A stretch of 41,445 nucleotides of DNA. Source: Escherichia coli. GTDB lineage: Bacteria > Pseudomonadota > Gammaproteobacteria > Enterobacterales > Enterobacteriaceae. Shown here in pieces: positions 3,151 through 27,850 of the stretch. The stretch is from NCBI RefSeq assembly GCF_016903815.1, contig NZ_CP069975.1, one strand, 5' to 3'. Position numbers and translations under genes: made by a program. Below the pieces are notes generated by a model. That model was not told where the DNA came from. It saw only the letters and a program-made list of their open reading frames with translations, and did no database searches. How positions within the stretch are numbered: the first letter of the stretch is position 1; every line of letters begins with the position of its first letter.

Positions 3151-3990
3151 TCACGCATCGCTATCCAACAGCAAATCATCTGCGCGGGTGCGATCAAACG
3201 TAGGCGTTGCTTTCACAATAGTGCCGCCCGGCGTTGCAGTGATCGGGGCGTTAATCGACGTAACTTCAGTAAGCGAAGTTGTATCCGAAGTTTCAAACCA
3301 GCAGAATGCTTTTTCGGTATCAGAAATCTCATTCAAAGTGATCATGTCGGCCTGTTCATTTACAACAACCGACAAATAGAGCGTAAGCCCATCAAACACT
3401 ATATGCAGTGGCAGTAGAGGCTTTACGAACTGATTAAACTTTCTGAGAATTTCTTCTGTAATTGCGGACTGATCTATCGTTCCAGTAATACCCATTGTCC
3501 GGGCCAGGTCGTTTATGGGAATACTGATCATTCCTCTGGAAGTCAGAAACATCTCGCCGAATGTGCCGCCGGTGGTTTCCAGTGTGCTTTCTGGAATCAG
3601 GACCGTGCCATAGGGATGACGTTCAAAGTCCACCGGAGCATATATTGGATCCCATAAAACCGATATACCGTTAAATTCGCGATAAATTGTCTGGTTTATA
3701 GGGCGTTCAGTACCCTTAAAATGGATCTCATCAAACCGCTGTTGTAACAACATCGGAACGGAAGATGAATTCGACGTTCTGATAGTAAAAAACTGGCCAA
3801 GTTCATTTGTCCTAGTCTCCAGATCCTCCTTGCTCATGGAGAAAATAGACTTCCGGTTGGTAATTCGCTCCAACCATGGGTCAACAAAGGTGTCCATCAT
3901 TGACTGAACCAAATCAGCCAATGATTTATAAAGTAATGACTTTTGCTTAGCTGATGTAAGCCGGTTATTAAACCAGGAACGCTGCATCAC
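3151..3990 (-). CDS. Baseplate/tail structural protein (P1 gene 16-like by position)
   Basis: 279-aa ORF; stop overlaps the downstream hairpin; start overlaps the upstream gene stop (ATGA-type coupling at 3987-3990). Confidence 0.6.
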   Translation of the reverse strand: MMQRSWFNNRLTSAKQKSLLYKSLADLVQSMMDTFVDPWLERITNRKSIFSMSKEDLETRTNELGQFFTIRTSNSSSVPMLLQQRFDEIHFKGTERPINQTIYREFNGISVLWDPIYAPVDFERHPYGTVLIPESTLETTGGTFGEMFLTSRGMISIPINDLARTMGITGTIDQSAITEEILRKFNQFVKPLLPLHIVFDGLTLYLSVVVNEQADMITLNEISDTEKAFCWFETSDTTSLTEVTSINAPITATPGGTIVKATPTFDRTRADDLLLDSDA

Positions 3991-5420
3991 TCCTCCTCAT
4001 ACGAAATATTAAAGGTGGAGTTTTCTGTATCCAGATAAACGAAATCGTAAAAGCCGTTGGACTCATTCCACTCGACAAATTCCAGATAAAAGTCGCGGAA
4101 ATAACCCAGCGTTTCGATAAATGCCCAAACGTCTTTTTTCTTGATTAGGATGTACTTGCCGACACGGTTCGGATCAAAGAAAGTTGAGTCACGCCCAAAT
4201 TTTGTTTCCAGTGCCGACTTCAGCTCATCAGTCACGTTCTCAATGGTCAGGCTTGCCGATATCCGCCCAGTGATAGTGATCTTAAAGGGGAGTTTTCTGA
4301 CCTCTTTATACGAGAATTTCTTGTTCAACTCATTCGGCACCTTCTTAAAGGCAGCCAGGATCACTTCTTCAAGCTCTGACTGGCTTTTGTTTGGATGCCA
4401 TCCTGAAATAAATATCTTATTGATATTCCGAACATTATAAGCACCATCTAATTTCTCTTGCTGGCCTTCGCCCCATGCCTTTACCCAGGACAGTCCCGGG
4501 ATGTTACGCACCAAAAAATACGTATAGTCCCCGCCCCATACGACCTGATCATCATAGGCAAGGTAATATTGTGCACGATTACGTGTGATCTCCGTTGTTT
4601 CGGCATCGGTACCTGCGGTTATGGGTGTCGTTGTCTTAACTGAAATCAAATTAGCTAAATTAGCCGCAGAATCGACAGGCGTCAGGTTTTGGCCAGCAAC
4701 CAGGGTTATATCTCCGTTGGTGCACCATACCTTAAGTGTAATGGTCGAGCCTTCTGGCGGTATTTGCCCAATTAGCCCATCACCGAATCGAACCCCCAAC
4801 TGCTCGGATGGCTTATAAAACTCAACGTAGACCTGGCTTTTACTACCGGCTAACCGGAACATAGTGCTGGAAGACCACTGCGTGGTCTTACCATCGGTCG
4901 TCACGAATACTTCCAGCTTATAGCAGACAGCAGTGAGAGCCTTTGATAACACGACTTCCAGAAATTCTTTGGCTGCCGTAACGGTATATGTCACCTCCTG
5001 GATTTCCAACTGTGCCACTTCTACCGTACCGGTGCCGTCAACCAACCTGCATACATCCATAGTCATGTAAGGGTACTGGTCGTCAGATATTAAAGGCATA
5101 TTTTTGGGGATTACCGCTGGGGCATCTTCACTTGTGGCGGTGATCTCAATCATCCCCGATGACGGTGTTGGCTTGGTACCAACGTAACTATTCGTTTCTG
5201 CCGCTGCCAGGATAGAGGAACGCCGCGTCGCGGTCGATATAAAGCCTTCAGCCAGCGCCGCATCGGCATACTGAAAGCACCTGTAGACAATCTGGGTAAT
5301 AAACAATGTCAGCATCGAGACAAATTGAGAGCCGACAAACTTCGACCAGAATGAATCTTTCTCGACAAGCTCTTCAAACTCTGCACGAATACTGTCTTTA
5401 GTCGGTGTTGTTTTACTCAT
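3987..5420 (-). CDS. Baseplate protein (P1 BplA-like by position)
   Basis: 477-aa ORF in tightly packed structural operon; 4-nt overlaps with both neighbours. Confidence 0.6.
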   Translation of the reverse strand: MSKTTPTKDSIRAEFEELVEKDSFWSKFVGSQFVSMLTLFITQIVYRCFQYADAALAEGFISTATRRSSILAAAETNSYVGTKPTPSSGMIEITATSEDAPAVIPKNMPLISDDQYPYMTMDVCRLVDGTGTVEVAQLEIQEVTYTVTAAKEFLEVVLSKALTAVCYKLEVFVTTDGKTTQWSSSTMFRLAGSKSQVYVEFYKPSEQLGVRFGDGLIGQIPPEGSTITLKVWCTNGDITLVAGQNLTPVDSAANLANLISVKTTTPITAGTDAETTEITRNRAQYYLAYDDQVVWGGDYTYFLVRNIPGLSWVKAWGEGQQEKLDGAYNVRNINKIFISGWHPNKSQSELEEVILAAFKKVPNELNKKFSYKEVRKLPFKITITGRISASLTIENVTDELKSALETKFGRDSTFFDPNRVGKYILIKKKDVWAFIETLGYFRDFYLEFVEWNESNGFYDFVYLDTENSTFNISYEEE

Positions 5421-5776
5421 AGCACCACGTCCTGTGTGATAGTTATATCCCTGATACGAATGGATATTTTCAACTTATCAAAAGCATCTCCCTCGGCTAC
5501 TGACAAGCCAGAAATCGGTATGTCAGGTAAATCTACCGTCAGTTTTTGCAACAGCATTGCCTCAACCGCAATTTGAACATGCGACAAGTTGGTCGGTTCG
5601 TGTTTAAACTGCGGTAAAACATTGCCCCATGACGGATCTCCGTATACCTCACCCTGATAAGTGTTTAGCCACTCATATAAACGAGCGCCCCAGGCCTCCT
5701 CCTGGGACTCATACGTTTTTACGCCGGATAACTCCAGCGTCAGTAAAGGATCAATTTCATTATTGTTGGCCATCAA
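5417..5776 (-). CDS. Small morphogenesis protein (P1 PmgA-like by position)
   Basis: 119-aa ORF, translationally coupled on both sides. Confidence 0.5.
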   Translation of the reverse strand: MMANNNEIDPLLTLELSGVKTYESQEEAWGARLYEWLNTYQGEVYGDPSWGNVLPQFKHEPTNLSHVQIAVEAMLLQKLTVDLPDIPISGLSVAEGDAFDKLKISIRIRDITITQDVVL

Positions 5777-8700
5777 TCAACTCTCGCGTAGTCATTCATC
5801 AACGGATCATCAATTGACAGTGGCACCGTGCGCATAACGCCCGGTTGAGGCGTGCTGACCTTTACGACAGTTCCCTGGCCTTTCGCCGAGTCTTTAGTGT
5901 GCTCTTCAATCCTGGCAAGCAATGAGGTCATCTGCGCAAACAGCCGCTTCGTTTCACCATCAAGTGAAACGGTATTATCAGCCAACTGCATTGTCGGCTT
6001 GGCACCGGAGCCGCCAAGGTCACTAATAACCTGTCCGTCTATCTGCATACGACCGGTTGGTTGCTGCAAATCGTTGGCGGCAGTCGTCACCTGGGACGTG
6101 GAGGCTGGTTCAGGCGCATTATTTTTCCGCATCCCCGGCGAGTTGCGGAGTTTATCAAATAGTCCATCAATCCCCATTTGTGCGCCGAGTTGGTCAAAGT
6201 AACTTGAGTTGCTGGCCACCGGACGCGCCTCTTCAACTGGCATCGGAGTATCAACATACACATTGCCAGCTGCTGTTGCGGTCCCCTTCCCTCGTGCACG
6301 TTCTTCGAGCGTTCCCTGAACGACTTCCCGACGCATACCCCGGCCATTCATGAATTTGTTGACCAGATCGTTAACGCCAACAGCATTGCCAATTTTGTCT
6401 ACCAGACCGCCTTTCTCAAACGGGCTATCACCAGGGGTAAACGCCAGGCCAGTAGACTGATCGATAACAGCGTTATCAGGCAGTGGTCCCCTCACTCCAT
6501 ATTGCGCCCCACCCTGTGCTCCTGCTCCAGGTGTATAGATTTCACCACCTAAATAGCGAGCACGATGAGTATTGACCTTGATCGCGTACTCACGGTTTTC
6601 TTTCGATAAGTCACCTGTGCCTTTTTTCCACTTATTGATAGTGCCAAACCCAGCATTATATGCAGTGATGGCCTCGTTTAAGTCTCCATTGGCTTGCTTC
6701 AGATATTTGCTCATGAGAAGAGCCGCAGCTTCTGCCGATTTCACAGGATCAAACGATTCACCTTCAGCTAAGCCAGTCTCTTCACGAGCAATCCCCGTGA
6801 ACTGAAACATCCCCAGAGCACCGGTTTGGGATTTTGCATACGGATTACCACCAGATTCAGTTGCAGCAATCGCGTAAAGAGTGCCTTCTGGAAGACCGTA
6901 TTTATTCTCTAGTTCGGCAAAATACGGAGCCAACTTATCGAGATTTGCCTTACCTTCAGCGCCAAGACTTCCGACTTTTACATCCAAGTTGCCATTGTTG
7001 TAGGTATCCGCAGCTTTCTGAATGTCATTCCTGGTGCCAGTGGTATTAAGCGACGATGATGACGAGCTATTTTGACCAATAGCTTTATCAATTTTCTGCA
7101 ACGCGCTATTGCCCGTTTCTACGGCATTTGCATTGATAATCTGATTAGCAGTTTCTTTAACTGTTTTATTGCTATCTTTCGCCGTATCTAGGGATGCATT
7201 TACAACACGAGTGACAATATTAGCCTTTTTAGGGGTATATTCAGTCTTAGGAGCATTGTCCTCCTGACTTTCTTTAGCTGGTGTTTTTAATTCAGGTGTA
7301 ACCTCTTTCGCATCCGCTTTGTTGACTAGCTTTGATGCAACCCAGGCCACAGGGGTGCTCTGAACAGCGGCATCTGCAACCTCACCTGAAAGCTCTTTTG
7401 CGGCACTCCATAGATTACTGCCAGCTTCTTTAATGTATTTCCCTGGGTTCTTAATGAAATCAATTGCACTATCAATTGCATCACTGAAAACCTGTTTCAG
7501 GTTATCGACAGTAAAGAAGTTTTTGATGGCGTCTAATTTTTCGTTCAGGTTCTTTGTTGTGTCACTGAACCATGCTGAAATAGCATCACCAATCTTTGCA
7601 GTATAATCACTAAATGTCGTGGATATAGTATCACCAAGGTTAGAAATATATGTTTCTAAATTGGTAATCCCACTATCAATGGCCTGGGCAATACTTTCCG
7701 TCGAAAATGATTGCAACATATTGCCGATATCCTCAAATCCAAGTGATTTGAGAACGCCGCCAATGGCACTGCTAATACCAGATACCAGTCCTCCCATATC
7801 GAGAACGTTAGCCAGTGTATAAGCCGCTTTTTGCTGAAAAGATGGATCTTCCCCATCCTTAAGCCCAAAGGTCCGACGTTGTGCTTCTGTATCATTCCAA
7901 CCGGTTACCGCATCATAGATACCTCCAGCCACCGTGCCGACTAGCGGAATTGCGCGTAAAGCCCCCTTTGCAAGAGCCTTAACACCTAGTTTCCCCAATC
8001 CCTTAGTTGCAAGTTTTCCGGCACCGCGAGTAGCCAATTCGCCAGCTTCTTTGGCAGCAGCTTTTTTCCCACCAAAGCCCAATAAGCTTGCAACTTTTTT
8101 TATACCTAAAGCGCCTAGTGCCATCGAGCCAACTTTCTTTAGTACCCCACGGCCAAAAATAAGGGAAGCAATACCACCGGCCCCCTTCCCTAACAGGCTA
8201 AATAGTTTGGACAGCAAGCCGCCCTTCTTTTTCCCGGTGTTTTTGGCTATCTGATCAAGGGCGCTGAGAATCTTGTCATTGCCCTCTTTAATTTCGCTGG
8301 TCTGCTCCTGAAGTTCCTGAACCGTCCGTTTTTGGGTGTTAACCTGAACGACATCGGCACTATTTTGCGATTTACGCCTAAAAAAACCTTTTCTACGGCT
8401 GTTATCGTCATTGCCACGAATCACATCGGCAATAGACTTTCTGGCACCATTAAGCGATCCACCAACTTCTTTTGATATCCCGCCAAGCTCCTTCCCTGCT
8501 GCCCACAATGGACCAGCAACGGCATAACCTAACGCATCGACGGCACGAGTCTCTGAAGGGTTACCTATGCCTTCAGCTACTTTTGACAGTTTTTTTAATA
8601 AACCTGATTCAGCATTTAGACGCTCATCATCCTCTTTGCGCCTGGCCTTTTCAGCACGTTCAGCACGGACATCTTCCGCTGCGGCCTTACTCCCTGACTT

Positions 8701-16682: not shown

Positions 16683-16864
16683 TACAATCGTTGCGGGTGC
16701 TTGAGGCTATCTGCTTCAGGCATTACCCGAAAAGCAGATAGAAGAAAGCCCCAGATAACATTACGCGTCCTGCAAGACGCTTAACATTAATCTGAGGCCA
16801 TATCTATGCTTAGCATACGTAGATTAACCCTCTCCCCTTTTAAGGAGCAAGGAATTTTTTACTG

Positions 16865-17461
16865 CTATGCCGCATTTCCAATTATGGATTCAGCGACCAG
16901 AACAACCCCATGCTTACTTCGATCTGGGTGTTCACTCCATATCTCGGATTCAGGAATACTTACCCCGTCATAGCAAACACGTTCGCCGTCAAACGGGTAA
17001 TACTGAGCGGCATCGGTGTCAAGGATAAACACTTTTAGCTCGGAAGAGCGACGGGCGATGTGTTGCCAAAGAGCTTTTCCACCTTCGTATTGCTCATTAT
17101 CACTGAGCAAAACAACACCAGCTTTTGAGGCTACGGTTTCGTAAACAAAAGTAGCTAAACCGACATCCCGGACGGTTCCATCAACCACGATACCTTCAAT
17201 CTGGGCAACATCGCTATCCTCCCAGAACTTCCTTACCAGTACGCCTTCAAGCTGCGGGCGACGTTGAAGTTCAAGAGTAGCGACAACCTTATGGCGCATA
17301 TCACCATCGATAACAGAAGGCGCAGCCTCTATTACAGCTGCAAATGGGGTTTTGGAATCCCATATAACCTGGTAAAGCACACCCTGGATGGTAACTCCGT
17401 CCAGGATCGAAAATCGACGAGCGACAGTACCCGGGGAGTACGACATTGGAATCACAGCCAT
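16865..17461 (-). CDS. Hypothetical protein (P1 PmgF-like by position)
   Basis: ORF track 16865..17497; start placed at ATG 17461 with strong RBS AAGGGGGA. Confidence 0.5.
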   Translation of the reverse strand: MAVIPMSYSPGTVARRFSILDGVTIQGVLYQVIWDSKTPFAAVIEAAPSVIDGDMRHKVVATLELQRRPQLEGVLVRKFWEDSDVAQIEGIVVDGTVRDVGLATFVYETVASKAGVVLLSDNEQYEGGKALWQHIARRSSELKVFILDTDAAQYYPFDGERVCYDGVSIPESEIWSEHPDRSKHGVVLVAESIIGNAA

Positions 17462-23178: not shown

Positions 23179-24180
23179 TTAAGGCTTCGGCTTTTTATCG
23201 AGGCTCTTTCTAAGGATATGCCCAATCATCCTGTCGAGTTCTTCCTGTAGCTCTTTTGAAAGTCGATTAAACTCATAAGAAAATGCACGGCCTTTCACGC
23301 GCTTCCTTGCAAAGCGATCCTTGTCCTCAAATTTCCATAATTCAGTAACTACGGACTTATCTTTAGAACCTTTATCCGTGAGTAGTGAGGCTTCCTTTGT
23401 TATCAAGCGCAGGATTTTATTTTTAACTTCATCTTCGGCCATTTCTTCAATGGATAAGATGTCGTTTATTTCCGGGGATATGTTTTGAATAAGCTGATCA
23501 AACTCTAAATTCTTGTTCCCCATTTCGTCGCCAACAGCACAAAGCGTTTTGTAGTCCGAAAAGGTTAATTCCGACTGCACAGGGAAAAGGGCGACTAATT
23601 CTTCCGGAGCACTCGCTGCCTGGAGAGCACGCGTGACCTTCGCCTGAGACAGCCCTTCTTTGGCTGCAATATCCTTCTGACTCATCCCATCATTTTTCAT
23701 TCGCATCAAACGCAGACCTATTTCTCGAATGCTGTGCTGCAATGCTGTCTGAACGTCTTTCGCTAAATTTTGCGCTTCCTGAACGCTGATCTCCTGGTCC
23801 GTGACTAAAACCCGCAACCCTACGTTCTCTAAGATGGCAGAAGCTCGACGCCGGGAACCATCCAAAATTTCAATTTTCCCTGTAGCCCGTCTAACACCTA
23901 TTGCAGGGTAAAATTGCTGATGCTTAATAGTGCTTCGGATACTTTTTAATGATTTTGGCGTAAGAGATGCCTGGTCACGCCCGTTGTTATGCTGATCAAC
24001 AAAGGTATCGCTTTCTACCTGGTTCGGAGGTATTACCTCTTCAATAAATGTGGCCTGGCGACCAGTTGATAACTTGAATACCTGCTCGACTCGATCGCCA
24101 GAGGCTGAAGAACTATCAAATCCGCTTAATATTGAAGGATTAAGGGTTCGCCCAATTGTTGGTCTGTTTTTCTTTGACAT
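23179..24180 (-). CDS. parB: Partition protein ParB (centromere-binding)
   Basis: 333-aa ORF downstream of parA with a 16-nt gap; followed by the parS-like site. Confidence 0.85.
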   Translation of the reverse strand: MSKKNRPTIGRTLNPSILSGFDSSSASGDRVEQVFKLSTGRQATFIEEVIPPNQVESDTFVDQHNNGRDQASLTPKSLKSIRSTIKHQQFYPAIGVRRATGKIEILDGSRRRASAILENVGLRVLVTDQEISVQEAQNLAKDVQTALQHSIREIGLRLMRMKNDGMSQKDIAAKEGLSQAKVTRALQAASAPEELVALFPVQSELTFSDYKTLCAVGDEMGNKNLEFDQLIQNISPEINDILSIEEMAEDEVKNKILRLITKEASLLTDKGSKDKSVVTELWKFEDKDRFARKRVKGRAFSYEFNRLSKELQEELDRMIGHILRKSLDKKPKP

Positions 24181-24196: not shown

Positions 24197-25393
24197 TCAG
24201 TTAGATCTGATAAATTCAATACGGTCAAAAACTGCTTTAGCAAAATCTTCCGCAGCAATTCGCGCGTTCTTCAATGCATCAGCACTACCAACATACGTTG
24301 CCGGGTTAGCTGAAATAACAGTGTCAAAAGACTCGCCGCAGCGTTCAAAACCGTCAAGGCGAGGGAGGACAACATCAAGCATATCCCCACCGAACACTTC
24401 TTTAGCCAGGCTATGGCAATACTTATGGTCTGCCTTGTTACTCAACTTGGACATAAAACCAATGTTAGTTGCAAGCTGACACTCGCAGCCTTCATCCGAA
24501 ATGAGTTTCACCAACTCAGGAAGGCGGGCAACGTATTTAAGCGATGAGTGGAAATCAACCGTTGCAGGCGGCAGAGGTGTAAACAGTATATTGGCCGAGG
24601 CCAAAGCATTTTTCAGGAAGGCGTCAAGGTGAGGACCACTATCAACGAGGATAAAGTCATAATCGCTCTTCAGCTTATCAATCACATTTTCTTTCAGGAC
24701 TGCATGGATGTTCTGACCCGGTAGATGCTCATTGCACAGCTCTCTCCAATCGGATGCAATAAAGGCATCGTCAATCGACGCAGGCATAACGTCAACCCCA
24801 GGTACAACAGAAGGAACAATAAACTCCTCTAACAGCTCTTCACGGCTTACATTCTGCAACATAGCCTGTGCAGATGTTGCGTTTACGATACCAATAGAGT
24901 GTTTATGGCTTAAAAACATCGTTGCTGAAGATTGCGGATCAAGGTCAATAACCAGAATCCTTAAATCTTCCATCAGAAGATGAGGATGAGCACGCATTGC
25001 ATGCGCCAGAGAAACCGTCGATACAGTTTTTGACACACCGCCTTTAAGATTGGAGATGAAAATCACATACGCTTCGCTGTAGCGATCCCGGTATTTTGGC
25101 ACTCCGCGATGTTCATATATGTCAATGATGTTCTGAATTGACATCGCATATTTCATTGAAGAGCCAGCAGGGCGTTTATCGAAAACATAACCCTTTTCTT
25201 CCATTTCACTTACGGCATAGTCAACGTTCGCACGAGTCAGTAGAGGCAATTTTGCCAGTGCCGCTTTCGCATAGACCTGGTAAAACTCGTTCGCGTGTAG
25301 CTCATCCTTTTGCAACTGTACTTGTTCAGTCAGAACATTGAGCATTCTATTTGCTCTTTGAGCAACCTTGTGAAGCTGGCTGGAATCACTCAT
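24197..25393 (-). CDS. parA: Partition ATPase ParA (type Ia, with N-terminal DNA-binding extension)
   Basis: 398-aa ORF with deviant Walker A KGGVSKT and ParA-type motifs. Confidence 0.9.
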   Translation of the reverse strand: MSDSSQLHKVAQRANRMLNVLTEQVQLQKDELHANEFYQVYAKAALAKLPLLTRANVDYAVSEMEEKGYVFDKRPAGSSMKYAMSIQNIIDIYEHRGVPKYRDRYSEAYVIFISNLKGGVSKTVSTVSLAHAMRAHPHLLMEDLRILVIDLDPQSSATMFLSHKHSIGIVNATSAQAMLQNVSREELLEEFIVPSVVPGVDVMPASIDDAFIASDWRELCNEHLPGQNIHAVLKENVIDKLKSDYDFILVDSGPHLDAFLKNALASANILFTPLPPATVDFHSSLKYVARLPELVKLISDEGCECQLATNIGFMSKLSNKADHKYCHSLAKEVFGGDMLDVVLPRLDGFERCGESFDTVISANPATYVGSADALKNARIAAEDFAKAVFDRIEFIRSN

Positions 25394-25408
25394 CGAAAGT
25401 CATCCTTT

Positions 25409-25444
25409 ATGCTGTATTTTTGAATTTAATTAAAAATGCTGCAT
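25409..25444. promoter_or_regulatory. par promoter/operator region (imperfect inverted repeat)
   Basis: ATGCTGTATTTTT...AAAAATGCTGCAT imperfect dyad 16-50 bp upstream of the parA ATG, in AT-rich DNA. Confidence 0.5.
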
Positions 25445-25532
25445 AAAATAATAATGTATGCGTAGATGCTTGTACATAGCATTTTCTGCATGTTTGGTTC
25501 ATTTTGCACGATTGAGAGTTACAAGGAGGGCA

Positions 25533-25555
25533 CAAAAAAGCCCCGTTCAGGGGCA
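25533..25555 (-). terminator. Rho-independent terminator after the two-gene insertion cassette
   Basis: On the minus strand GCCCC-TGAAC-GGGGC followed by TTTTTT; starts 7 nt after the stop of the 25562..25810 ORF. Confidence 0.7.
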
Positions 25556-25561
25556 TCAGTG

Positions 25562-25810
25562 TTATTTGCTAAGAGCAGCGAATAATCGTTCGAAATCGAT
25601 AGTATCTATAGCACGCGTAAGCGCCGGAAGTTCAGCCTCAAAGTACCCGTGTCGATCGTAAAAGAAGGGACCGAAGAGCGAGGCATGTTGGATTCTACTT
25701 CGCCCCAGCCCGGACACACAGTTAAGCCCATTACCGGCTAAAAGGCTAAAAAACTTCTCTGGATTATCGTGGTAAAGCTGGGAATCAATGGTGGCGGTTA
25801 ACTCTTCCAT
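25562..25810 (-). CDS. Small hypothetical protein, translationally coupled to the upstream T5orf172-like gene
   Basis: ORF track 25562..25822; likely start ATG 25810, lying 13 nt inside the end of the upstream gene (ATGGAAGAGTTAA overlap); followed by a terminator. Confidence 0.5.
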   Translation of the reverse strand: MEELTATIDSQLYHDNPEKFFSLLAGNGLNCVSGLGRSRIQHASLFGPFFYDRHGYFEAELPALTRAIDTIDFERLFAALSK

Positions 25811-26373
25811 AGGGAAGCACACCCGCCCTGTATATCCCAGGGATATTTAGTCCGAAGCATAAACATTGCTTTCAGCAATTCACATTGAGCGCGGATCGCG
25901 TCCGGTTCATAGCCAGATATGGAGACATAAGCCACGTCCCTCATTCCTGCGTCATCTTTGAAAGTCACGATAGAAGTAACATCCAGCTCTTTTTCGAAAG
26001 AGCAAGCAGCATCTACTGGACGCTGAAGTAAATCATTCGACTTAATGCGCTCGAGAATCCCTCCCCACATATCATTTAGATATTCGATATGAGCCAAAAC
26101 CTTATCAAGACACTCTCGTGTAAACCATTCAGTATGCCCGCCACCGACGCTTTTCTCCCACGGCGCATTCCAGGGGAAAAAGGTTGCGTGTAAAGCCCGC
26201 TCAAGATTAACCATTGCCAAACGCGTACCACGATAGACCCGTGAAAGCGCAAAATCGGGACTCACTTGTAGCCCTTTAAACCGTGCCAATGGACCACATG
26301 AAATGCCGATTTTAAAAGTATCTCCGTTCTCTGGCACCAGAACGTAGAGGTAGTGTTGTTTCTCTTCTTGCAT
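25798..26373 (-). CDS. T5orf172 / GIY-YIG-like domain protein (cargo gene between incA and the par promoter)
   Basis: 191-aa ORF; N-terminal YLYVLVPENGDTFKIGIS...RFKGLQ...LERALHATF...GGGHTEWF matches the T5orf172 domain pattern as I recall it (hydrophobic strand, KIG, conserved LH, terminal EWF). Confidence 0.6.
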   Translation of the reverse strand: MQEEKQHYLYVLVPENGDTFKIGISCGPLARFKGLQVSPDFALSRVYRGTRLAMVNLERALHATFFPWNAPWEKSVGGGHTEWFTRECLDKVLAHIEYLNDMWGGILERIKSNDLLQRPVDAACSFEKELDVTSIVTFKDDAGMRDVAYVSISGYEPDAIRAQCELLKAMFMLRTKYPWDIQGGCASLWKS

Positions 26374-26399
26374 ATCAATACCACTGCTTGATGAGAACC

Positions 26400-26665
26400 G
26401 CGCAAATGTTGACTATGCGCGAAGGTTAATGTGAATAGTTGACTATGCGCGATGTGACTACAGTCAAAAGTTGACTGTAGTCGATTTAACTCCACCAAAG
26501 ATCGACTATGTAAGATATTGTCGGGAGAAACGTTGACTATACGCGATGAAATGCCCCTAAAAGCCATCTCAATAGCGACTTGCAGAATATTGACGCCAGC
26601 AAAAATCCACCAGCGTCAACGAATGTCGCCTATAGTCAACTTCTCGCTATCGCATATAGTCAATA
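26400..26665. repeat. incA-like iteron array (RepA-binding control locus)
   Basis: At least 7 copies of a ~15-bp iteron TTGACTAT(G/A)CGCGA and variants, in both orientations: 26408, 26437, 26470, 26503, 26533; inverted copies at 26624 and 26650. Confidence 0.8.
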
Positions 26666-27550
26666 TTATGGATTGCGCTTATGGATCTGGAAGCCGATTT
26701 TCCTGCCGTTTTTTATCTCTGAAAATTTAAGATATTCAATAGCTTCCAAATCTTTCATGGCTTTTCTGATAACGCTATTTTGCACGCTAACGGATGATTT
26801 GAGATTAAGCCTCGCTCTAAGGCGCTCAATGCTGACAGGTGCCGGGTTGGCGGGTAGAGCCTCAAAGAATGTATACAGTACCTTGGCCGTCTCTTTGCGC
26901 CCTAGTTTATCCAGCATCTTCAGCTTCAGGATTCGCTTATAGTCAACATAGTAAAGTTCAGATAGCTGTTTCTGCGGCTGGATCTCGATAACATCAAGCT
27001 CGGTATTCAGGCTGCTATATGCCAACAAGTTGACGTTAATGTTATTGAGATGACCTTTTGCCGCCGGGAAGCGGAATTTGACAACTGTCTGCTGAATGCG
27101 TGTCAGAGAGTCATCAATACTTTTACGGAACGCCTTTGAAAGGCGCTTACGTGGATAGCCGCATCGATCGGCAAACTCGGAGAATGGCAGGGTGATTATG
27201 CCGTCATCATCAGGTGCGTAGTCAAACAACGCGGAGGTTATGCCCACCCACACCTTAAAATCAGTATCCATATCCAGGCGTGGACCATGAATTTCAATTC
27301 CCTCATAGCCTTCCTGCTCAACAATTTTGAGGCTTGATAGTTCTTCAGTTGCGTTCGTTGTGTTTGTTGTAACTGACGATCCGCGACGTAGCGCCACATT
27401 GGTAGATTTTAAGGTTGGCACAAACACACCTAAGCGCAACAAAGCGATGGGTTGTATAGTGCTGTTGTTATTGGGCTTCAGGCTGTGGATTTCTCCTGTA
27501 TTTCCTGCAACTTCTTCAACGCTAAGGAAGCCTTTACTTTCTTCCGGCAT
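26666..27550 (-). CDS. repA: Iteron-binding plasmid replication initiator RepA
   Basis: ORF track 26666..27586 starts at TTG; start placed at ATG 27550 with GGAGAAA RBS. Flanked by iteron arrays on both sides. Confidence 0.8.
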   Translation of the reverse strand: MPEESKGFLSVEEVAGNTGEIHSLKPNNNSTIQPIALLRLGVFVPTLKSTNVALRRGSSVTTNTTNATEELSSLKIVEQEGYEGIEIHGPRLDMDTDFKVWVGITSALFDYAPDDDGIITLPFSEFADRCGYPRKRLSKAFRKSIDDSLTRIQQTVVKFRFPAAKGHLNNINVNLLAYSSLNTELDVIEIQPQKQLSELYYVDYKRILKLKMLDKLGRKETAKVLYTFFEALPANPAPVSIERLRARLNLKSSVSVQNSVIRKAMKDLEAIEYLKFSEIKNGRKIGFQIHKRNP

Positions 27551-27589
27551 CACGGTTTCTCCATGTGTGGCGCGGCCTGACGTCAATTT

Positions 27590-27850
27590 GGATGGCTGTT
27601 ATCAACAGCTGTGAATATTCAGACTCTAAAATCGCTTACAGTCAATGTTTCTGTCGCGTATAGTCAACAATAAATCGCGTGCAGTCAACAATAAATCGTG
27701 CACAGTCAACATAAAATCGCGTATAGTCAATGTTGATCCCATTTCAGGCCAGTAATGACGCGGCTTACAGCGATCCGGGATCTTCTTTGGATCTTCCTAG
27801 GTTCTCTTTAGGATCTGTTTATTGGATCTATGCTGTGGATAAGTTGAATA
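27590..27850. promoter_or_regulatory. Plasmid origin oriR / incC: five iterons, GATC cluster, DnaA boxes
   Basis: Five direct iterons TCGCGTATAGTCAA-type at 27625-27735. Six GATC sites within 95 bp (27735, 27772, 27779, 27790, 27812, 27825). DnaA box TGTGGATAA at 27834-27842 and TTATCAACA-like box near 27612. Confidence 0.8.

Follow-up and report, generated by a model that had tools for sequence, protein, structure and literature searches.

We analyzed a 41,445-nt stretch of Escherichia coli DNA (RefSeq assembly GCF_016903815.1, contig NZ_CP069975.1; below, the window), in which a gene for a predicted nuclease of the T5orf172 type lies between the replication initiator gene repA and the partition genes of a P1-like phage-plasmid. 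The repA gene (26666..27586, minus strand) encodes a p0111/RepFIB-like initiator of the Rep3 family that is 42% identical to the RepA protein of P1. An iteron scan located five origin iterons with a 21-bp spacing upstream of repA (27632..27730, minus strand) and a set of downstream, incA-like iterons of the same p0111-type replicon at 26409..26663. They are followed by the nuclease gene (25562..26373, minus strand), an intrinsic terminator (25533..25554, minus strand), the Ppar promoter (25448..25476, minus strand), at which homology to the P1 locus resumes in a blastn comparison, and the parA (24197..25393) and parB (23179..24180) genes, both on the minus strand. In a megablast search the window grouped with P1-like phage-plasmids of the SJ46/RCS47/JL22 type, at a nucleotide identity of 98.7-99.7%.

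In the window the nuclease gene appears as two overlapping open reading frames (ORFs). The larger one (25798..26373, minus strand) encodes 191 aa, that is, residues 1-180 of the intact protein, with the complete nuclease domain and the beginning of the winged-helix-like domain, followed by an out-of-frame tail of 11 aa (IQGGCASLWKS), and the smaller one (25562..25822, minus strand) is an out-of-frame C-terminal remnant covering residues ~184-269, the second half of a Rep-WH1-like domain. An earlier note on this DNA interpreted the pair as a two-gene, translationally coupled operon. Alignment with RCS47, Ro157c2YLVW, SJ46, and 673R5 revealed that the window has GGGATATACAGG where the relatives have GGGATACAGG. 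This extra AT, a dinucleotide duplication at 25834..25835, is missing from all four relatives and shifts the frame after codon 180. Its deletion restores a single ORF of 810 nt and 269 codons that spans 25562..26373, and in RCS47 and Ro157c2YLVW the same interval is annotated as one 810-nt coding sequence (CDS) for a "GIY-YIG nuclease family protein".

The same organization was found in larger samples. In PLSDB, 400 plasmid records match the nuclease region; one GIY-YIG CDS is annotated in nearly all of the records sampled, and among the plasmid matches listed the region is 919 bases long in nearly all and 917 or 918 in three, compared with 921 in the window. When the 81 bp surrounding the insertion were compared with 410 E. 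coli genome records, no match exceeded 97.5%, and the 15 best genome matches listed span 79 of these 81 bases. The phage protein family phrog_2876 matches the intact protein over residues 1-269 (E=8e-193), and a Pfam search with the small ORF yielded no match. These sequence comparisons make it nearly certain that the interval contains a single frameshifted gene. Since this one gene carries a 2-bp insertion, the overlap of the two ORFs (13 nt or 25 nt) is a by-product of the frameshift and does not reflect translational coupling; the small ORF seen by the earlier note is present, but as a frameshift remnant and not as a separate gene. The window allele appears to be inactivated by the AT duplication and is probably a pseudogene, and its product is expected to be non-functional because the second half of the winged-helix (WH) domain is missing.

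The overlap of the ORFs in the window, together with the confirmed T5orf172 domain, the absence of the gene from P1, and the occurrence of remote homologues in mobile elements (one of them on an island with Mrr and WYL neighbours), could be taken to support a coupled module of a T5orf172 protein and a small partner, serving anti-phage defence, exclusion, or addiction at a plasmid-maintenance hotspot. We regard such a module as very improbable. The 2-bp insertion that causes the split was unseen among ~800 related records examined, the small ORF corresponds in frame to the C-terminal end of the intact protein and has no Pfam match, and the gene is linked to a replicon and does not occupy a variable cargo site. 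The suggestion that the locus is a candidate defence system also found no support: neither the intact protein nor either fragment matched anything in PADLOC-DB v2 (E<=1) or NCBIfam. Exclusion of rival elements by a single nuclease, rather than by a two-gene module, is plausible.

Two other explanations of the split were considered. The first is a sequencing or assembly error, the gene being intact in the real molecule. Consistent with an error, the insertion was unseen in the complete records examined, both plasmids and E. coli genomes, and the record of a relative, 673R5, combines homopolymer indels in the nuclease gene with a split parB, a pattern typical of assembly errors. On the other hand, the window differs by a dinucleotide duplication and not by a change of homopolymer length, and its parA, parB, and repA show no disruption. 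NCBI lists the exact 191-aa product under two accessions, WP_251301669.1 and MDW7340102.1, on two contigs, although the source of the window itself may be among them; a look-up of the contigs encoding this exact product returned nothing on record. Because an identical product has been recorded, the AT allele is probably real, and an error is improbable. In the 673R5 record (ON470615.2), parB is divided into two CDSs (781-1781) and the nuclease gene has two 1-bp homopolymer deletions (3163-3970); given these probable assembly errors, its annotation of an 80-aa "T5orf172 domain-containing protein" is unreliable.

The second explanation holds that the split is functional, either as a programmed frameshift or as a natural pair of a nuclease and a small DNA-binding fragment that reassemble. 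The presence of the exact 191-aa product in NCBI and of a second allele (190 aa) that enters the same frame nearby would agree with it. Against this stand the nature of the change and the position of the break. The site is a plain duplication of AT, and relatives conserve neither a slippery heptamer nor a downstream structure; the break separates helix 157-173 from strand 183-187 inside the predicted WH domain and does not coincide with the interdomain linker. Moreover, the relatives are overwhelmingly unsplit, and other truncations end at many different positions. A functional split is therefore extremely unlikely.

The N-terminal part of the protein (~residues 1-105; 26059..26373, minus strand) is a T5orf172 domain of the GIY-YIG nuclease superfamily. 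The earlier note recognized a T5orf172-like N-terminus in the 191-aa ORF from its motifs FKIGIS, ALHATF, and GGGHTEWF, and the profile search that it proposed bears this out: Pfam T5orf172 (PF10544) matches residues 8-85 with E=5.3e-6, accompanied by weaker matches to MUG113 and Tox-URI2 and by a match to the phrog_681 endonuclease family (E=1.1e-9). At least 75 remote homologues align over residues 1-110, and 38 homologues are invariant at nine positions (Y10, K21, G23, R31, E58, H62, E82, W83, and F84). All invariant core motif residues are retained in the 191-aa fragment of the window. The family profile, the core motif residues, and the GIY-YIG alpha/beta fold expected of T5orf172 proteins are all present. 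A catalytic arginine and a glutamate are important in T5orf172 nucleases (PMC8263062, PMC10448857), and by analogy with the proteins studied in PMC8263062 the motif residues can be provisionally assigned to catalytic roles. Four remote homologues of this domain occur in heterogeneous mobile-element settings, which do not fix its function. On one metagenomic contig (L016, 2431-4813), a gene for an HTH_36 protein of 328 aa that may be an initiator is flanked and overlapped by two T5orf172/MUG113 genes and neighbours a ParA-like gene, another arrangement of nucleases beside a replication gene.

The C-terminal domain (~residues 120-269) is separated from the nuclease domain by a low-pLDDT linker at ~residues 110-125. 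At the sequence level it has no relatives outside the four lineages described below: an alignment of the domain had no match in Pfam, and a profile search of PDB sequences with a 38-sequence alignment gave nothing at E<=10. Its predicted structure was more informative. In a Foldseek comparison with AFDB50, 32 of the top 50 matches are Rep WH1, RepFIB RepA, RepA, RepB, and TrfA proteins, with modest scores (E from 2e-4 to 6e-3, TMq from 0.4 to 0.54). The assignment to Rep-WH1-like winged-helix domains is well supported at the fold level of the structural model, and the architecture of the intact protein, a nuclease followed by a Rep-like WH domain, is highly likely. A recent duplication of the adjacent repA as the source of the domain was rejected, since hhalign of the C-domain with five cognate Reps found no relation (probability 0.2%); any derivation of the domain from a Rep is conjectural.

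Comparison with canonical P1 (NC_005856) showed how the nuclease gene is embedded in the replicon. Identity between the P1 locus and the window is 97% as far as position 25495, which lies in Ppar, and resumes at the same level at 27748, just beyond the last origin iteron. The intervening block (25496..27747; 2,252 bp), which comprises the origin iterons, repA, the downstream iterons, the nuclease gene, and the terminator, has no similarity to P1 in blastn except for 59 bp. In this comparison, a p0111-type block replaces the iteron-repA-incA block of the P1 IncY replicon by recombination at oriR and Ppar, with the nuclease gene at the par-proximal edge of the exchanged block. The earlier note had described a cargo cassette inserted between incA and the par promoter, possibly a variable cargo site; instead, the gene forms the terminal part of a rep-linked, 2.25-kb replicon block. 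The note was right that P1 has no gene between incA and the par promoter: in NC_005856, incA copy 1 is ~190 bp from the -35 box of Ppar with no gene annotated between them, and no homologue from P1 or P7 was found in the phage collection.

Both replicons have the order iterons, repA, iterons, and then Ppar-parA-parB, and their backbones are shared (ParA 99.7% and ParB 100% identical). They differ in that the RepA proteins have only the 42% identity given above and the iterons are unrelated, and in that P1 has a non-coding spacer of 190-213 bp where the window has 0.9 kb of nuclease gene and terminator. The P1 RepA and 19-bp iterons characteristic of the P1 IncY replicon are not found in this one, and the iterons that the earlier note called incA are p0111/RepFIB-like RepA iterons. 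The replicon of JL22 was typed as p0111 (PMC9603915). The replicon names in use are inconsistent: MOB-suite reports "IncHI1B" for three relatives (L009-L011), the JL22 paper gives p0111, and annotations give RepFIB or RepB. In JL22, SJ46, and RCS47 the same gene is found in the same place with 98.7-99.7% nucleotide identity (PMC9603915), but it is unsplit, being intact in RCS47 and interrupted by Q228* in SJ46. In the literature searched, we found no function, domain analysis, or Rep-like C-domain described for the JL22/SJ46/RCS47 gene.

The iteron core is TTGACTATRCGCGA, and iteron-like matches in the window number 18, compared with 5.5 expected. The downstream iterons at 26409, 26439, 26471, and 26533 are in one orientation and those at 26626 and 26650 in the other. 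The one closest to the start codon at 26373 (26409-26422) lies ~31-36 bp from it, in line with the ~30 bp estimated previously. An extra iteron-like site with one mismatch, TTGACTATAAGCGA, was observed within the repA coding sequence (26933-26946, minus strand), and an inverted repeat TTGACGC...GCGTCAA with iteron-like half-sites, noticed by eye at 26590-26619, lies between the downstream iterons of one orientation and those of the other. At the other end of the block, a consensus scan confirmed the intrinsic terminator expected after the small ORF, a hairpin GCCCCTGAACGGGGC followed by TTTTTT at 25554..25540 plus tail, with a 5-bp all-GC stem, a 5-nt loop, and a T6 run. It closes the rep-nuclease block just upstream of Ppar and is conserved in the relatives in the DNA alignment. 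An Rfam scan of the nuclease interval detected no RNA family.

The nuclease gene is linked approximately 1:1 with the p0111-type rep gene: PLSDB contains 400 records with the nuclease gene and 398 with the rep-plus-iteron segment. A search of 5,426 complete E. coli genomes detected it in 410, and among the phages of the collection only p0111-type P1-like ones carry it. A tblastn search of PLSDB detected only the ~400 P1-like plasmids and one distant match in Cupriavidus. This search, together with the plasmid CP042620.1, speaks against the gene being the usual companion of RepFIB-type replicons outside P1-like elements. CP042620.1 (L012), a 93.7-kb E. coli plasmid, has a p0111-like rep at 4063-4947 (76% nucleotide identity) with no T5orf172 gene downstream. 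Hence a p0111-like rep can do without the nuclease gene, and the p0111-like Rep family circulates outside P1-like elements. Apart from rep, this plasmid has almost no similarity to the window, and one of its genes is annotated as a phage tail protein.

Only three full-length homologues were found among 1.8 billion representatives: P0004 (44% identity), P0010 (28%), and P0011 (30%). In each case the gene lies between a Rep3-type rep and parA on a P1-like backbone (L006, L007, or L008), and the gene order is upfC, upfB, ppfA, rep, the nuclease gene, parA, parB, gp23. Two backbones and two types of replicon can be distinguished. The Rep proteins of RCS47 and L006 are 84% identical, and those of P1 and L007 83%, whereas ParA is 99.7% identical between RCS47 and P1 and, likewise, 99.7% between L006 and L007. 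Within each backbone ParA is thus 99.7% identical, the Reps only ~41%, and the nucleases 29%, or one of them is absent. The nucleases are 44% identical between RCS47 and L006, 40% between L007 and L008, and 27-30% across the two types. The C-domains of RCS47 and L006 are 31% identical, while their Reps are 84% identical. L006 and L007 differ only across 4831-7019, with borders that match those of the window/P1 pair. As judged from these comparisons, the rep-plus-nuclease block is exchanged as a unit in two different backbones. The homologue in L007 is located exactly where P1 has its 213-bp spacer; since the IncY-like rep of L007 also carries a nuclease, canonical P1 is the nuclease-lacking allele.

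The gene evolves under much weaker constraint than its neighbours. Across seven alleles, the pN/pS ratio of non-synonymous to synonymous diversity is 0.43 for the nuclease gene, 0.03 for repA, and 0.00 for parA. In the same region (24197-27586 of the window and relatives L003-L005 and L009-L011), pS is lower in the nuclease gene (0.030) than in parA (0.068) and repA (0.053), and non-synonymous diversity is far higher; the low pS could reflect recent sweeps or conversion of the segment. Among the inactivated alleles, SJ46 has Q228*, 673R5 has two 1-bp deletions, which are possibly sequencing errors, and the window has the AT duplication. Truncated products of 166, 173, 184, 190, and 191 aa have different ends, and N-terminally truncated calls were found on at least 139 contigs. 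The relaxed selection and recurrent degeneration known for homing-endonuclease genes (HEGs) are therefore both observed here, as is polymorphism for presence and absence, the gene being missing from P1 between flanks that are 97% identical. P1 replicates without the gene. The frequent independent truncations and a pN/pS of 0.43 indicate that the gene is dispensable for plasmid maintenance, yet partly constrained.

We propose that this single gene, the par-proximal part of the p0111-type replicon block and frameshifted in the window, encodes when intact a dispensable, selfish, sequence-directed nuclease; to this explanation as a whole we assign a probability of roughly 55%. The intact protein would be an endonuclease of the free-standing homing type, with its WH domain directing it to a site in P1-like relatives that either lack the gene or have a rival replicon. 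After cleavage the rival would be lost, or it would be repaired from the nuclease-bearing copy, and such repair would co-convert the adjacent replicon, which would explain why the gene is placed exactly at the border of replicon exchange. That the intact protein has a homing or competitor-directed function is, taken separately and by analogy with characterized nucleases, a tentative proposal, a little short of even odds. A more specific version, which we consider unlikely, is a nuclease directed at iterons or the origin. Its WH1-like domain would recognize, in a competing P1-like phage-plasmid, either the replicon region or the complex of Rep with iterons; cleavage would cure the competitor or force gene conversion, by which the nuclease would carry its entire replicon into the backbone of the rival ("replicon homing"). 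The gene is probably transcribed by read-through from repA, since neither a promoter-like nor a terminator-like site was predicted between the two genes.

Alternatively, the protein could be an accessory factor of the p0111-type replicon that binds iterons or heterodimerizes with RepA via its Rep-WH1-like domain and thereby influences initiation, handcuffing, or copy number; its nuclease domain would be inactive or used for site-specific nicking. It would then be a domesticated HEG, similar to CapR of PLE, a domesticated T5orf172 protein cited in PMC10448857. The near 1:1 linkage with rep, a location shared by four lineages, immediately behind the downstream iterons, the probable co-transcription with repA in the absence of a terminator-like site between them, and the role of WH1 as the dimerization and iteron-binding domain of Rep3 initiators all agree with such a factor. 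However, the contrast in pN/pS between this gene (0.43) and repA and parA (0.03 or less) and the frequency of truncated alleles, whose plasmids evidently continue to replicate, are not expected for it, and both P1 and the p0111-like rep of CP042620.1 work without the gene. In addition, the invariant catalytic residues argue against a nuclease-dead binder, and divergence is far more rapid in the C-domain (31% identity) than in Rep (84%). An accessory role is accordingly doubtful.

Several observations weigh against a selfish nuclease. The distribution is not sporadic, as would be typical of HEGs, since the numbers of records with the gene and with rep are nearly equal (400 and 398), and near-fixation within p0111-type P1-like plasmids fits a useful accessory function equally well. 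A pN/pS of 0.43 is below 1, indicating that some constraint persists. The borders of the exchanged block are equally expected from plain homologous recombination between conserved flanks. The 213-bp incA-Ppar spacer of P1 contains no remnant of the gene or its flanks, as judged by blastn, tblastn, and global alignment, and no recognizable target site. A scan for sigma-70 promoters between the last iteron and the ATG codon passed none. Cleavage, binding, and homing by the intact protein are predictions from its sequence. Finally, the closest functional precedent, the Odn protein of phage ICP1, is 42% identical to RepA_N of its PLE target, whereas the C-domain described here is unrelated to its cognate Reps in the hhalign comparison; and unlike classic free-standing HEGs, this gene is near-fixed with one type of replicon rather than sporadic, its homing being suggested by analogy.

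Outside the replicon block, Rfam models detected several further features of the window, all on the plus strand. A match to the sok antitoxin RNA at 16695-16869 (RF01794, 94.7 bits) indicates that the window carries a hok/sok-type addiction locus. The C4 antisense RNA (RF01695, 13042-13094) and the a1/b1 target element (RF03163, 13162-13247) correspond to the immI immunity region of P1. Three tRNA genes (34445-34517, 34523-34595, and 36226-36298) are expected for P1-like phages.

The ORF itself is already known from databases, as a "GIY-YIG nuclease family protein" and as phrog_2876, and one paper mentions the gene as unknown. The diagnosis of a frameshift, the Rep-WH1-like C-domain, the conserved slot between rep and parA in divergent lineages, and the pattern of decay are new. 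P1-like phage-plasmids are common carriers of resistance genes and have two types of replicon on one backbone. A testable candidate for the driver of the swap is this nuclease, which is conserved although dispensable, has a putative targeting domain resembling that of Reps, and lies exactly at the border of the swap; if replicon homing occurs, it would be a driver of the IncY/p0111 replicon dimorphism of P1-like elements. A practical consequence for annotation is that overlapping, apparently coupled ORFs should be checked for frameshifts against relatives before an operon is called.

Among known systems, the T5orf172 and GIY-YIG HEGs of phages (ICP1 and T5; the T4 Seg and I-TevI types) offer the broader comparison. 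They share with the gene described here a modular combination of a nuclease with a DNA-binding domain (PMC10448857), predicted in the present case, an intergenic position beside essential genes, presence/absence between 97%-identical genomes, fast evolution with recurrent degeneration, and a location at exchange boundaries; indeed, T5orf172 genes were noted to "occupy boundaries of genetic exchange" (PMC10448857). They differ in the targeting domain, which is a CapR, DUF723, or DUF4397 zinc-finger domain in 87% of the T5orf172 HEGs surveyed (PMC10448857) and a WH domain here.

The more specific parallel is ICP1 Odn (Gp88), a T5orf172 domain fused to a RepA-like domain, which cuts the origin of a rival (PMC8263062). 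Each protein has a T5orf172 domain with the conserved catalytic Arg and Glu, joined in Odn to an initiator-like DNA-binding domain (PMC8263062) and in the present protein to a domain predicted to resemble one, and each is the product of a mobile element in competition with related replicons. The order of the domains is reversed, the nuclease being N-terminal in the protein studied here, and in this case the gene lies within a plasmid replicon beside its own iterons and its activity and target are putative. If the nuclease does act on the replicon region of a rival, it would represent a second, independently evolved analogue of ICP1 Odn.

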